The notes beneath the pieces are model-generated. The model worked only from the letters and a program-made list of their open reading frames with translations. It made no database searches and was not told the origin of the DNA. 32,000 bases of DNA from assembly GCA_964640155.1 (NCBI GenBank), contig CAZXEQ010000007.1, positions 153,048-185,047 of the forward strand, read 5' to 3'. Of the stretch, positions 9,079-14,575 are shown piece by piece; within the stretch, counting starts at the first letter, position 1, and every line of letters begins with the position of its first letter. Made by a program: the position numbers and the translations under genes. This DNA comes from an uncultured bacterium (GTDB lineage: Bacteria > Auribacterota > JACPWU01).

Positions 9079-9114
9079 AATTGTTAACCTTTTTTTTATT
9101 GCAGGTTAACAATT
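9079..9114. promoter_or_regulatory. Perfect inverted repeat AATTGTTAACC-N14-GGTTAACAATT, a candidate BirA operator (bioO)
   Basis: The left arm (9079-9089) is the exact reverse complement of the right arm (9104-9114). The 14-nt spacer is T-rich. The right arm abuts the ATG at 9115 of the operon containing bioF and bioA. The architecture matches the TTGTWAACC-N14-16-GGTTWACAA BirA site as I recall it. Confidence 0.6.
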
Positions 9115-9897
9115 ATGCCCTCTCAAATTGTTTTGATTACAGGAGTGTCAGGGGGACTGGGCATTGAGTTAGCGTTAGCTTTTGCAAATAGGGGAGACAT
9201 CGTTTTAGGCGTTTATCATCAAAATCATATTGCTATTACAAAGTTAGAAGAGAACATTAAGAGAATAGGAGGTTTTTGTCAGTTTTATCAATGCGACATT
9301 CGTCAGGAGAAAGAGGTAAAAAAGCTTTTTCTTGCAATTGCATCGCGTTGGGGAAAATTGGATGGACTGATCAATAATGCAGGCATTATTCGGGATCAGA
9401 ATATTTTAAAAATGTCTTACGAAGATTGGGATGAAGTTATCCAAGTTAATTTAACAGGTTCTTTTTTTTGTTTGAAAGAAGCTATTTCTTTACTCACTAA
9501 AGAACAATTAAAAAAATCAAAATTCATTATCAATATTGTTTCGCTTCGAGGACTTACTGGAAATGAGGGACAAACAAATTATTCTGCGTCAAAAGCCGGA
9601 TTGATTGCTTTAACACAAACTGCTGCATTGGAGTTGAATCCTTTTGGAATTAAAGTTAATGCAGTTATTCCAGGACTTTTAGAGACGCAAATGAGCAAAG
9701 GAAGTAAGGCACTCAAAGACTTTTCAGAGCGTTTGCCATCTGATATTGCTCAATGGATTGTAAAAATAGCTTCTCTCCAAGAAACCACAGGTCAATTATT
9801 TATTTTAGAAAATCGAGTGACTAAATATGCAAATTTGCCAATATCCTTCTCGAGTTGTAATTACGGGGATGGGAATTTCAACAGCGATTGGAACTAA
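9115..9897 (+). CDS. Short-chain dehydrogenase/reductase, 3-oxoacyl-ACP reductase (FabG)-like
   Basis: Cofactor motif TGVSGGLGIELA, NNAG motif, and catalytic S...YSASK. The usual C-terminal GQ..VDGG is divergent (GQLFILENR). The last 71 nt overlap the next gene. Confidence 0.8.
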   Translation: MPSQIVLITGVSGGLGIELALAFANRGDIVLGVYHQNHIAITKLEENIKRIGGFCQFYQCDIRQEKEVKKLFLAIASRWGKLDGLINNAGIIRDQNILKMSYEDWDEVIQVNLTGSFFCLKEAISLLTKEQLKKSKFIINIVSLRGLTGNEGQTNYSASKAGLIALTQTAALELNPFGIKVNAVIPGLLETQMSKGSKALKDFSERLPSDIAQWIVKIASLQETTGQLFILENRVTKYANLPISFSSCNYGDGNFNSDWN

Positions 9898-10990
9898 GAT
9901 TTCCAAAGCTTGGGAAGCACTTGAAAAAGGAGAATCTGGAATAAAAACGCTTTCTTTTGATCAGCTCAAAATTCCAGCTGGATATGTCTCAAGTCTATCT
10001 TCTGAAAATAAAAAAGCTGAATTGCTTGCGTTGAATGCATCTGAAGAAGCCTTAAAAGATTCTGGTCTTGAAATAAAGAATATCCCCTCTGAAAGAATTG
10101 GAATTTGTGTGAGTTCTAGCAAGGGGGATTTTGAAGATATTCTAAACCCTACAAATGGATTTTTTTTGGAGAAAATTAATTCTAGACTGGTTCAATATTA
10201 TCAAACTTCAGGACCTTCTCTTAATCTTGTGGGGGCTTGTTCAACGGGTCTTCAATCTGTCTCATGGGGAACACGCTGGATACAAGAAAATAAATGTGAC
10301 ATAGTTTTTGCTGGAGCCAGTGACTCGGTTCTTCATCCCTTTTTGATTCATGCCTATGAACAGGCAGGCATTCTAGCGAAAATTGACTCTAAATCTCCCC
10401 AGAAAAATATTAAACCTTTTGATCGAGATAGAACTGGAACCGTTTTGGGCGAGGGCAGCGGGGTGGTGATTCTGGAGTCTTTAGAATTAGCTCAAAAAAG
10501 AGGCGCGAAGATTTATGGAGAAATTTTGTCCTCCTATTACGGAATTGACCCTTTTCATCCGATTCGTATGAATCCAGATGGATCTAGTGTGGCACAAATC
10601 TTTCAACATCTTTTTCAAAAATCTCAATATTCTATGGATAATGTTGACTTGATTCATCTTCATGGTACAGGTACAGTTTGGAATGATTTGATAGAAACAC
10701 GTGGAATTAAAAGTTTTTTTAAAGAGCAGGCAAAAAAAATTTCATTTTGTGCCACCAAACCTTTTACAGGACATTTAATTGGGGCCAGTGGCGTTGTAGA
10801 ACTTATTTTTAGTCTATTAGCTATGAAGCATGGGTTTGTTCCCCCCACACTTAATTTGGAAGAAACAGACCCTGAATGCGATCTTGATTATACCCCTGGT
10901 TATGGAAAAGAGAAAACCATACGGTCTTTGATTGGCTTGGCATATGGTTTTGGTGGTCATATCTCAGGAATTCTTGTGAGAAAGATATAA
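9827..10990 (+). CDS. Beta-ketoacyl-ACP synthase, KAS I/II (FabF/FabB)-like
   Basis: N-terminal RVVITGMG. The active-site Cys lies in GACSTGLQS. Both His motifs are present (HLHGTGT and KPFTGHLIGASG). At 387 aa it is slightly shorter than a canonical FabF. Confidence 0.85.
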   Translation: MQICQYPSRVVITGMGISTAIGTKISKAWEALEKGESGIKTLSFDQLKIPAGYVSSLSSENKKAELLALNASEEALKDSGLEIKNIPSERIGICVSSSKGDFEDILNPTNGFFLEKINSRLVQYYQTSGPSLNLVGACSTGLQSVSWGTRWIQENKCDIVFAGASDSVLHPFLIHAYEQAGILAKIDSKSPQKNIKPFDRDRTGTVLGEGSGVVILESLELAQKRGAKIYGEILSSYYGIDPFHPIRMNPDGSSVAQIFQHLFQKSQYSMDNVDLIHLHGTGTVWNDLIETRGIKSFFKEQAKKISFCATKPFTGHLIGASGVVELIFSLLAMKHGFVPPTLNLEETDPECDLDYTPGYGKEKTIRSLIGLAYGFGGHISGILVRKI

Positions 10991-10991
10991 T

Positions 10992-12179
10992 ATGAGACAT
11001 TTTGATTTTTTAAATCAAGAATTGATGGATATTCACACTAAAAATCGCTTTCGCGAATTCCAAACGATTACATCAAATTCCGGACCATCTATTACTCTGG
11101 GGAATAAAAAACTTATTAATTTTGGATCAAATAATTATTTAGGACTTGCACAAAACTTCCAAGTGAAATGGTCCTCTATTATAAGCACATGGCAGTTTGG
11201 AACAGGTTCGGGAGCTTCTAGGCTTATCTCTGGCAATACAACCGCTCATGACGCTTTAGAACGCATGATTGCTTCATTTAAAGGGGCTGAATCAGCTCTT
11301 GTTTATCCTACAGGTTATATGGCCAATTTAGGGGTAATTTCTGCTTTAATCGAACCAGAAGATGTTGTCATTCTAGATCGTCTTAATCATGCTAGCATCG
11401 TTGATGCCTGTCTTCTTTCCAAAGCGAAAATATGGGTTTATCCTCATAAAAATCTTGAACGTCTCAACGAAGTTCTCGAAAATGCTAAAAAAAGGAATTT
11501 TCGTCGAAAATGGGTCATTACAGAAAGTCTTTTTAGTATGGATGGGGATATTGCTCCATTGCCAGAAATTCTAAAAATTTGTGAAAACCATCAGGCCTTT
11601 CTTATGATTGACGAAGCTCATGCTACAGGAGTTCTTGGAGAAAATGGAAGAGGAGCATTAGAATACTTTGACATTGATCCTAAAAGAGTTTCTATCATCA
11701 TGGGAACTTTAAGTAAAGCATTGGGATCTTTAGGTGGATTTATTGCGGGGGAAAAAGAACTTATTGATTACTTGAGAAATCGATCTAAAACTTTTATTTA
11801 TACAACAGGACTTCCTTCTTCAGTTTGCGCAGGATCTCTTAAATCAATTCAGTTGATTGTAAAATCAAATCAATTAGTTAAAAAACTTAAAGCAAATATT
11901 GATTATTTTTATGAGGGATTAACAAAAGTTGGCATGGATTGCCCAAAAGAAAAAACACCCATTATCCCTATCATTACAGGAACTGAGTTGGATACGATGA
12001 AAGCTTCTCAAAAATTAAAAGAAGAAGGTTTTTTTGTCCCAGGTATCCGTCCGCCTACGGTTCCAGAGGGAGAAGGGCGATTACGCATCAGTTTAATGGC
12101 AACACATACAAGACAACAGATGGACGGAGTATTGGGAACAATAAAATCTATTTTTAAAAATCATGAAATCACAAAATAA
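10992..12179 (+). CDS. bioF: 8-amino-7-oxononanoate synthase (alpha-oxoamine synthase family)
   Basis: The PLP-lysine region GTLSKALGSLGGF, DEAHATG, and a Gly-rich GSGASRLISG motif are present. The gene lies immediately upstream of bioA. Confidence 0.8.
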   Translation: MRHFDFLNQELMDIHTKNRFREFQTITSNSGPSITLGNKKLINFGSNNYLGLAQNFQVKWSSIISTWQFGTGSGASRLISGNTTAHDALERMIASFKGAESALVYPTGYMANLGVISALIEPEDVVILDRLNHASIVDACLLSKAKIWVYPHKNLERLNEVLENAKKRNFRRKWVITESLFSMDGDIAPLPEILKICENHQAFLMIDEAHATGVLGENGRGALEYFDIDPKRVSIIMGTLSKALGSLGGFIAGEKELIDYLRNRSKTFIYTTGLPSSVCAGSLKSIQLIVKSNQLVKKLKANIDYFYEGLTKVGMDCPKEKTPIIPIITGTELDTMKASQKLKEEGFFVPGIRPPTVPEGEGRLRISLMATHTRQQMDGVLGTIKSIFKNHEITK

Positions 12180-13506
12180 AACTAGGACTCTTCAAAAGTT
12201 CGATAAACAATATGTTTGGCATCCCTTTACCCAGATGAAAGACTGGGTCAAAGGCGATCCCTTAATTATTGAAAGTGGAAAGGGGAACACTCTTATTGAT
12301 AGTGATGGCCATTCGTATTTAGATGGCGTTTCATCTTTATGGACTAATGTTCATGGTCATCAAAAAAAAGAAATTGATCAAGCCATTCAAAAACAACTGA
12401 AAAAAATTGCACATAGCACACTTCTAGGTCTCTCTAATATTCCTTCTATCAAATTAGCAAAAGAGCTTATTCAAATTGCTCCTAAAGGTCTTACAAAAGT
12501 TTTCTATTCAGACAACGGCTCCACAGCGGTAGAGGTTGCTCTTAAAATGGCCTATCAGTATTGGCAACACATAGGGCCTGGGTCATCGAGAACAAAATTT
12601 ATCGGTTTTAAGGAAGCCTATCATGGAGATACGATTGGCTCTGTCAGTGTTGGAGGAGTAGAATTATTTCATCATGCATTTAAACCTCTTCTCTTTGATG
12701 TCATTAGATTTGCTTCTCCATATTTTTTTAAGAATCAACCGGAAGTTTTGCTAGATCAAATAGAAAAAGAAATCATTCGAGAGAAAAATAAAATCATTGG
12801 CATAGTGATGGAACCTCTGATTCAAGGTGCTGCCGGCATGTTGACCCATCCCAAAGGCTTTCTGCGTTCCATAAGAAATTTATGTGATCGATATAATCTG
12901 CTCTTGATTGTTGACGAAGTAGCGACAGGTTTTGGAAAAACAGGAAAGATGTTTGCCTGTGAAAATGAAAATGTTAGTCCAGATCTAATGGCTATTGCAA
13001 AAGGTATTTCAGGTGGCTATCTTCCGCTCGCAGCAACTTTGGTAAAAGAAAAAATTTATCAGGCCTTTTTAGGAGAGCAGCATCAGTTCAAAACTTTTTT
13101 TCATGGACATACTTATACAGGGAATCCTTTGGCTTGCGCAGCAGGACTAGCTTCATTCAAAATTTTTAAAAAAGAAAATGTCCTTAAAAAATTACAGAAG
13201 AAGATTCAGATTTTTAAGGAAGGCTTAAAATTATTCTCAAAACTTCCTCATGTTGTAGAAATTCGTCAATGTGGTGTCATGATCGGGATAGATCTTGTTA
13301 AAAATAAATCTCCTCGCAAAGACTATTTACCTGAGGAAAAAATTGGAATTCGTGTTTGTCAAGAAGCCAGAAAAAGGGGAGTTATCTTGAGACCTCTTGG
13401 AAATGTCATCGTTTTGATGCCTCCACTCTCTATTCAACATAATGAGATAAAAAAACTGCTCGGAAGCACGTATCATGCCATCCGAGCAGTTACAGAATCA
13501 TTTTAA
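12163..13506 (+). CDS. bioA: Adenosylmethionine-8-amino-7-oxononanoate aminotransferase
   Basis: YVWHPFTQMKDW N-terminus, AYHGDT, VDEVATGFGKTGKMFACE, HGHTYTGNPLACAA, and the C-terminal RPLGNVIVLMPP. It aligns with BioA along its whole length. Confidence 0.9.
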   Translation: MKSQNKTRTLQKFDKQYVWHPFTQMKDWVKGDPLIIESGKGNTLIDSDGHSYLDGVSSLWTNVHGHQKKEIDQAIQKQLKKIAHSTLLGLSNIPSIKLAKELIQIAPKGLTKVFYSDNGSTAVEVALKMAYQYWQHIGPGSSRTKFIGFKEAYHGDTIGSVSVGGVELFHHAFKPLLFDVIRFASPYFFKNQPEVLLDQIEKEIIREKNKIIGIVMEPLIQGAAGMLTHPKGFLRSIRNLCDRYNLLLIVDEVATGFGKTGKMFACENENVSPDLMAIAKGISGGYLPLAATLVKEKIYQAFLGEQHQFKTFFHGHTYTGNPLACAAGLASFKIFKKENVLKKLQKKIQIFKEGLKLFSKLPHVVEIRQCGVMIGIDLVKNKSPRKDYLPEEKIGIRVCQEARKRGVILRPLGNVIVLMPPLSIQHNEIKKLLGSTYHAIRAVTESF

Positions 13507-13522
13507 ACGCGAAACAGAATTC

Positions 13523-14575
13523 TTAATCAAATACGGCTAAACTCACTCCAAAAGAGCTGTGCCCATCTGAATATCCAAAATCAAATCCGAATCCTGTGTA
13601 GGGTCCTGACTCATAAACATAATATCCATCTACATAGGCATAGGAACTTCCACATGTATCAGCCCAAGAAACAAGTTGATCCCAACCCCAAGGTTGATAG
13701 GTTGTGTAAGAAGCATATCCATAGGGGTAGTAGTAATAACTGGAATATTCATTCGCGAGTTTTTCTCTTTCTAACTCGAGTTTTTCCTGTTCCAAAATAT
13801 ACTCATTTTTAGCAGCAATATCTTGATCTGCTGATGCTCTAGCTGCTTTTTGTTGTTCAATGCTGGGGACTTTAGGGCCTGCAACGCTTTCACCTACAGG
13901 ACTCCAACCTGGAGGAGGGGCAATTGCAACTTTTGCATTTCCACGAGCCTTAAGATAGTCTTCTCTTGAGATCTTCATTCCTTGAGATTCTTCCGTCATC
14001 CCCAATTTTTCATACAATTGAGCAATAACTTGTGCTCCTTTATCGCTTTGAGTTTGATCCACGATTGTTTTAGCTACAGACAAAACACCTGCAGCACCAT
14101 CATGATCTCCTATTTGAATAAGCCCATTAGCTGCTTCTGTCATTCCAATCCAATCATTCTGTGATTGAGCAGTTTGTTCGGCTAAATGAAAAGCTTGGTT
14201 GCTGCTTTCTTTTTTTCCTTGATCAGGTGGTAAACTTGCAAACGCGTATCCAACCGCAATCGCAATTCTCCAATCCTGCTTTTGCTCGGCCATTTGAAAA
14301 GCTTGATCAAATAAACCTGATGCCTGAGCTGGTTCGCCAAGTTTTAAAAGAGCATTCCCAGCATCCAAACATCCTCTTGGCTCACTTGCTTGAGCAGCAA
14401 ATTGACCTGCTTCTTGAAAATGTTGAATAGCTTCAGCTTTGTTTTTTGCCTTAATGGCTTGAAAACCTTTTGCAAAAGAATCATGCATGGATCGAGTGGG
14501 ATCTTCCGAAAAACCTCGAGTTGCGATTAAGCTTATCATTAGAATAAAAAGTGCATATCGTTTCATATTTTTCAC
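13523..14575 (-). CDS. Secreted repeat protein (TPR/Sel1-like degenerate repeats) with a Tyr/Gly/aromatic-rich C-terminal region
   Basis: Signal-peptide-like N-terminus (MKRYALFILMISLIATRGFSEDP) and a good SD (AAGGTG) upstream on the minus strand. Helical repeats of about 35-40 aa recur (e.g. FDQAFQMAEQKQDWRIAIAVG and NQAFHLAEQTAQSQNDWIGMTEA). A coiled EQEKLELEREKL segment follows. The tail reads YSSYYYYPYGYASYTTYQPWGW...GFGFDFGY. Confidence 0.6.
   Translation of the reverse strand: MKNMKRYALFILMISLIATRGFSEDPTRSMHDSFAKGFQAIKAKNKAEAIQHFQEAGQFAAQASEPRGCLDAGNALLKLGEPAQASGLFDQAFQMAEQKQDWRIAIAVGYAFASLPPDQGKKESSNQAFHLAEQTAQSQNDWIGMTEAANGLIQIGDHDGAAGVLSVAKTIVDQTQSDKGAQVIAQLYEKLGMTEESQGMKISREDYLKARGNAKVAIAPPPGWSPVGESVAGPKVPSIEQQKAARASADQDIAAKNEYILEQEKLELEREKLANEYSSYYYYPYGYASYTTYQPWGWDQLVSWADTCGSSYAYVDGYYVYESGPYTGFGFDFGYSDGHSSFGVSLAVFD

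Follow-up and report, generated by a model that had tools for sequence, protein, structure and literature searches.

In a 32,000-nucleotide stretch of DNA from an uncultured bacterium of the Auribacterota (assembly GCA_964640155.1, contig CAZXEQ010000007.1, positions 153,048 to 185,047 of the forward strand; hereafter the window), a FabG-like short-chain dehydrogenase/reductase (SDR) and a ketoacyl-acyl carrier protein (ACP) synthase (KAS) lead an operon with the biotin genes bioF and bioA. The pair probably forms a biotin-dedicated, predicted BirA-controlled module that supplies the pimeloyl thioester of BioF without methylation by BioC or demethylation by BioH. The module is real and conserved: the operon and its operator, the paralogy of both genes, their biotin-linked clades, a diagnostic residue in each enzyme, and the exclusion of bioC are all directly observed. 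A dedicated pathway to the pimeloyl moiety had been suggested in the initial annotation of this DNA, and the idea is strengthened by paralogy, by conservation in bio operons across many families, and by a common BirA site.

The SDR (9115..9897, + strand), a biotin-linked, FabG-like 3-ketoacyl reductase of 260 aa, is followed by the KAS (9827..10990, +), a biotin-linked, KAS II-like ketosynthase of 387 aa. Behind them lie bioF, for 8-amino-7-oxononanoate synthase (10992..12179, +; 449.6 bits on TIGR00858, cut-off 426), and bioA, for 7,8-diaminopelargonic acid aminotransferase (12163..13506, +; 543 bits on TIGR00508, cut-off 405). All four open reading frames run in the same direction, and the close junctions reported earlier are borne out, with a 71-nt overlap between SDR and KAS, a 1-nt gap between KAS and bioF, and a 17-nt overlap between bioF and bioA. 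A BirA-type operator (9079..9114, strand not assigned) pairs two inverted arms of 11 bp (9079-9089 and 9104-9114) that match perfectly across a 14-nt spacer, and its 3' end directly abuts the SDR start codon. The palindrome, which had also been recognized from the sequence, fits the published BirA consensus TTGTAAACC-N14/15-GGTTTACAA (PMC545781) and occurs only once in the 2.44-Mb genome, even when one mismatch is allowed. Comparable sites are located 5' of the SDR in the loci of eight relatives, and 5' of bioB-bioF-bioC-bioD in a relative that has no such pair (G017, locus L208). Together with a BirA bearing an N-terminal helix-turn-helix domain, encoded on contig C4, the palindrome and its N14/15 spacer mark SDR-KAS-bioF-bioA as a predicted member of the BirA regulon.

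Diagnostic residues of the ketosynthase and reductase

The genome is 97% complete, and a related locus from Ca. Auribacterota is 87% identical. A housekeeping plsX-fabH-fabD-fabG-acpP-fabF cluster is found on a different contig (C1), along with two fabI genes, and its FabG and FabF are only 33-35% identical to the SDR and KAS, which are therefore paralogues and not the only fabG and fabF copies. The KAS has the KAS I/II fold (PF00109/PF02801) and the Cys-His-His triad expected from its motifs, with C138 in GACSTG, H279 in HGTGT and H316 in GHLIGASG, as well as K311 and GFGG at 374-377. Its AlphaFold2 model (mean predicted local distance difference test score 91.9) matches FabF structures with a template modelling (TM) score of about 0.93, the top PDB matches being Bacillus subtilis FabF (4ls5) and its I108F mutant (4ls6). 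Nevertheless, it scores 285 bits on the FabF equivalog model TIGR03150 against a cut-off of 494, has no linkage to acpP, and carries a lysine in place of Ile108, the back gate of the acyl pocket. Phylogenetic placement, which the initial annotation had proposed as a check, sets it apart from housekeeping FabF in a clade of its own, and its Cys-His-His triad separates it from BioZ, which has Cys-His-Asn.

The lysine in question, Lys99 (codon 10121..10123, +), aligns with Ile108 of FabF and also with residue 108 of the FabF encoded in the same genome. In FabF, Ile108 gates the acyl pocket at about C7-C8 of the acyl chain, and the I108F substitution limits loading of longer chains (PMC9006962). 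With a glutaryl chain on C138, a lysine at this position would be well matched to the carboxylate and may halt elongation at C7. Lys or Arg occupies residue 108 in 34 of 166 distinct ketosynthases, and these 34 form one clade (Shimodaira–Hasegawa-like approximate likelihood ratio support of 100 in a quick tree). Residue 108 was not a selection criterion, and 33 of the 34 are by bio genes compared with 0 of 130 other ketosynthases, an adjacency count that is inflated because some loci were retrieved for holding bioF. By distance, a bio gene is no more than 2.2 kb away for 31 of the 34; two others are beside bioB in longer regions, and one is on a contig of 2.6 kb. At L218:6001-7287 and in P0101, a K108 ketosynthase stands alone behind rho-rpmE-prfA-prmC with no bio genes near.

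Several wider searches were conducted. A link to a cyanobacterial KAS family, PRK05952 (NF004618), is not supported by profile score: the ketosynthases score 218-224 bits against a cut-off of 455, and housekeeping FabF scores higher, at 275. The titles and abstracts of papers on slr1332 draw no link to biotin. A metagenome scan returned mostly ordinary FabF and served as a control only, plasmid searches gave only FabF and FabG, atlas searches gave only generic FabF/FabG clusters, and the matches in a profile search of 50% representatives were dominated by multi-module polyketide synthases.

The SDR shares with FabG the SDR fold, the features that led to its description as intact, namely TGxxxGxG (T9-G16) and the catalytic residues S143, Y156 and K160, and also the catalytic N112; the model of an orthologue from a relative (G010) has the FabG fold with a TM score of 0.96. 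It lies outside the fab cluster, scores 181 bits on FabG TIGR01830 (cut-off 298), and has E-N-R where FabG has a C-terminal D/N-G-G. The arginine of this D/E-x-R motif, Arg234 (codon 9814..9816, +), is diagnostic of the clade: Arg is found at this position in all 47 bio-linked SDRs, which form a single clade, and Gly in all 73 other SDRs. Over its final ~24 residues the SDR runs on into the KAS overlap, a stretch that is not conserved and is absent beyond close kin. The KAS start at 9827 is backed by matching N-termini among relatives, so the overlap can be taken as real; with its run-on tail, it looks like the result of a lost stop codon. This overlap (9827-9897) is out of frame and common to loci L007 and L060, and G003 has an intergenic gap instead.

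Distribution of the pair and missing pimelate genes

In the genome, bioB and bioD are encoded elsewhere and two biotin carboxylase domains are present. The absence of bioC, bioH, bioZ, bioW and bioI, first remarked on for the window, extends to the whole genome: profile searches gave nothing over cut-off for bioC, bioH or bioW (best matches of 66 bits against 185 for BioC and 86 against 207 for BioH), the sole FabH is the housekeeping one and there is therefore no BioZ, and no P450 motif match was found. No complete BioC/BioH route was found.

Different families of the Auribacterota, and metagenome contigs as well, keep the gene order (bioB)-SDR-KAS-bioF-bioA-(bioD), and these operons contain neither ACP nor fabZ genes. 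Among 79 Auribacterota genomes, a KAS with Lys or Arg at residue 108 was confirmed by sequence in 29, with bioB in 28 of these; BioW was found in none of the 79, and bioC-like genes in three, the two bio operons retrieved from these being without the pair. In 111 genomes of probable Omnitrophota, a phylum assignment taken from the source names of close matches, 44 have the KAS and all 44 have bioB; five further KAS genes were found by hand beside bioB among the remaining genomes, giving a total of 49. None of the 31 genomes negative for bioB in this group has the KAS. Here bioC occurs in 17 of the 111 and never together with the KAS, an exclusion with a Fisher p of about 1e-7 that is inflated by kinship.

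The SDR clade reaches the Nitrospirota (Nitrospiraceae, Thermodesulfovibrionia), where 28 of 30 loci beside bioF and/or bioD have the D/E-x-R motif; most are arranged as bioF-SDR-bioD, and there is no adjoining KAS. A FabF paralogue with Arg108 is encoded in 17 of 61 Nitrospirota genomes and adjoins bioF twice (L332, L340). The tree sets this paralogue in a separate clade with no firm placement relative to the K108 clade; it may represent convergence on a similar solution, and there may be hosts in culture. The paralogue, otherwise standalone, is found at loci L292, L328-L343 and L358-L362. No KAS adjoining bioF was found in the phylum of G080.

Other features of these operons and their surroundings were recorded. 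In the window, an unannotated protein resembling tetratricopeptide repeat proteins (13523-14575, - strand), kept within the family, has a signal peptide and a Tyr/Gly-rich C-terminus, and its gene converges on bioA. Operons without bioA have a Rossmann-type dehydrogenase of 312-327 aa beside bioF and bioD (L063:9189-10172, L256:7774-8727, L260:3849-4787); its matches to ELFV_dehydrog/PglD_N are weak, and it is possibly BioU-like. Fusions include a Pfam-confirmed bioD-bioA of 705 aa (L257:2543-4660) and a bioA-containing protein of 972 aa (L275:4750-7668) that probably also takes in bioC. In L262-L266, glycine cleavage genes (typed in L262) come after bioB-bioF-bioA-bioD; these genomes yielded no bioC and no K108 KAS, which leaves their first biotin step without an assigned gene.

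Proposed chemistry and competing explanations

In the proposed mechanism, the KAS would load an unmethylated omega-carboxy-acyl chain on C138, a glutaryl chain and, in the first round, probably a malonyl one. Lys99 at the Ile108 gate would neutralize the free carboxylate and exclude longer chains, and the loaded chain would be condensed with malonyl-ACP. Reduction of the charged 3-keto-dicarboxyl-ACP would then fall to the SDR, in which Arg234 is a candidate for contacting the carboxylate. The remaining steps of the cycle or cycles to pimeloyl-ACP would be left to the single housekeeping ACP, FabD and FabZ and to one of the two FabI enzymes. The genome has only one ACP and one FabZ. The fabI paralogues are in tandem and 49% identical (L006:493-2119, G000 C1), and one of them could serve the dicarboxyl enoyl-ACP step. 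E. coli FabG, FabA and FabI process the BioZ product in vitro (PMC7645780), so these later steps can be handled by a dehydratase and an enoyl reductase of the housekeeping kind; by the same token, a dedicated reductase is not always needed. There is also precedent in BioZ for basic and polar residues that hold a glutaryl carboxylate (PMC7645780, PMC8024396).

On balance, two rounds from malonyl-ACP seem the better choice, with one round primed by glutaryl from outside as a serious but somewhat less probable option. The malonyl primer is slightly favoured because no clear source of glutaryl-CoA (coenzyme A) was found in the genome, a weak negative based on finding no saccharopine dehydrogenase and no SucA motif; the sole acyl-CoA dehydrogenase found by motif is of the Bcd/EtfAB type and falls under the glutaryl-CoA dehydrogenase cut-off. 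At one distant locus, genes of lysine catabolism (saccharopine dehydrogenase, aldehyde dehydrogenase and HGLS) lie right behind bioB-SDR-KAS-bioF-bioD (L287:9996-12735), and these are a possible glutaryl source, seen in that genome only. More tentatively, the pair may represent a distinct two-enzyme route, in which a KAS II gated by lysine and a ketoreductase with an arginine near its C-terminus use the ordinary ACP for both rounds, starting from unmethylated malonyl-ACP, without S-adenosylmethionine (SAM), oxygen, lysine catabolism or a dedicated carrier. Such a route would be common in Auribacterota and Omnitrophota, with a version in Nitrospirota that shares the reductase and in which the basic residue at 108 may have arisen independently.

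Besides the inflated adjacency count, several points weigh against a biotin-dedicated pair acting on free carboxylates. The chemistry and the primer are proposed from comparison of genes and sequences, and Lys99 is placed by alignment and fold similarity and Arg234, a candidate contact, by sequence comparison. Because the R147A mutant of BioZ kept partial activity (PMC8024396), activity may not hinge on a basic residue. The exclusion between KAS and bioC is confounded by kinship, and the negatives for BioC, BioH, BioW, BioZ and P450 did not extend to BioE, for which no search was made. Two K108 KAS (P0101, P0073) are isolated, away from bio genes, and at least eight genomes have bioB-SDR-bioF or SDR-bioF with the KAS missing from the operon, an arrangement seen in both Auribacterota and Omnitrophota; no KAS with Lys or Arg at 108 was found genome-wide in G030 (96% complete), G016, G177 or G187. 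The SDR-only operons and the standalone K108 KAS indicate that the pair is typical, not obligate. The operons with the SDR and no KAS are L197, L198, L200, L204, L206 and L257-L259.

These last observations, and the greater breadth of the SDR clade compared with the KAS clade, including the many Nitrospirota loci with no adjoining KAS, could mean that biotin synthesis depends centrally on the SDR, with the KAS a flux-raising accessory replaceable by housekeeping FabF or FabH, or that the SDR has a different role, such as shortening a longer dicarboxylate by oxidation. This appears unlikely, as the KAS, where present, is nearly always between the SDR and bioF and is missing from bioB-negative genomes, while Nitrospirota have the separate Arg108 FabF paralogue; furthermore, gaps in metagenome-assembled genomes or greater divergence could hide a KAS elsewhere. 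It is quite improbable that the pair, although dedicated to biotin, works on masked or otherwise primed substrates, with a divergent methyltransferase and esterase providing malonyl or glutaryl methyl esters that the pair elongates and reduces more efficiently. Divergent BioH replacements are common, and the genome has 17 weak matches to TIGR02072 and one alpha/beta hydrolase (86 bits on TIGR01738) that might fill these roles; however, the matches are partial or far under cut-off and unlinked to bio genes, recognizable bioC and the KAS never share a genome, and an invariant Lys or Arg fits a free carboxylate better than an ester. The chance is slight that the pair makes another short or polar acyl product, such as an octanoyl or lipoate precursor or a specialized lipid, and is merely co-regulated with biotin: Ile108 substitutions do shorten products to about C8 (PMC9006962) and standalone K108 copies exist, but the position under the BirA site, insertion between bioB and bioF in many lineages, and the bioC exclusion point towards the pimelate step. 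Finally, that these are housekeeping fabG and fabF genes neighbouring bioF by chance was rejected, for although their best profile matches are FabG and FabF, both proteins are far under the cut-offs and in separate clades, and the true fabG-acpP-fabF genes are on C1.

Relation to known routes and biological significance

The closest comparison for the predicted biotin module is the extended bio cluster of Desulfovibrio vulgaris (DVU2558-DVU2565 and DVU1220), predicted in 2004 (PMC545781) and studied through fitness data in 2023 (PMC10102598). The initial annotation described such genes in some Desulfovibrio species as noted by comparative genomics and never resolved biochemically; the biochemistry is indeed still undefined, but transposon fitness data now show that the fab-like genes are needed without biotin (PMC10102598). 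Both systems have a KAS and a FabG-like reductase within a BirA-regulated bio operon without bioC, bioH or bioW, and a methyl-ester-free route to pimeloyl-ACP is proposed for both. In contrast to D. vulgaris, the operon described here, like related operons, has no dedicated ACP or FabZ-like gene, it occurs in other phyla, and no DVU1220-like nitroreductase gene is found in the window operon, no genome-wide search having been made. Likened by gene content, and not by the sequences of DVU2563 and DVU2561, the locus probably works as the D. vulgaris cluster does, and we suggest that the pair is a two-gene variant of this genetically supported route.

Similarly, BioZ of alpha-proteobacteria is a ketosynthase of bio operons with polar or basic residues at the pocket end, which takes a primer with a free omega-carboxyl group and bypasses BioC and BioH, as proposed here (PMC7645780; PMC8024396). 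BioZ, however, is FabH-like with a Cys-His-Asn triad, is primed by CoA using glutaryl-CoA from lysine, and needs no dedicated reductase (PMC7645780; PMC8024396), whereas the KAS is FabF-like, has its own reductase, and occurs in a genome without a clear glutaryl-CoA source. The fold, the catalytic residues and the presumed type of reaction are shared with FabF and FabG. Unlike in FabF, I108 is replaced by Lys or Arg and G107 mostly by Ser, and the following helix region is shortened in the KAS of the window; unlike in FabG, the invariant N150 and Q153 positions are relaxed and the C-terminal Gly is replaced by Arg. The end product would be the same as in the BioC-BioH, BioI/BioW and BioE routes, a pimeloyl thioester for BioF (PMC12704756), made in contrast to BioC-BioH and BioI/BioW with no methyl ester (as proposed), no pimelate ligase and no P450 motif found. 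Searches of the open-access literature turned up no description of this two-gene form or of a lysine gate.

Condensation of malonate units with a free carboxyl group is an old hypothesis for pimelate, doubted because the pockets of fatty acid synthesis enzymes are hydrophobic (PMC7645780). Genetic data on the Desulfovibrio cluster gave it new life, but that system takes five or six genes; with just two genes, and a single diagnostic basic residue in each enzyme, the question can be put to a direct test. These residues would also supply markers to re-annotate mislabelled fabF and fabG copies. If the proposed route is correct, it would provide a SAM-independent module for making biotin or dicarboxylic acids, and would account for the first biotin step that is missing from many genomes of the Auribacterota, the Omnitrophota and possibly the Nitrospirota.
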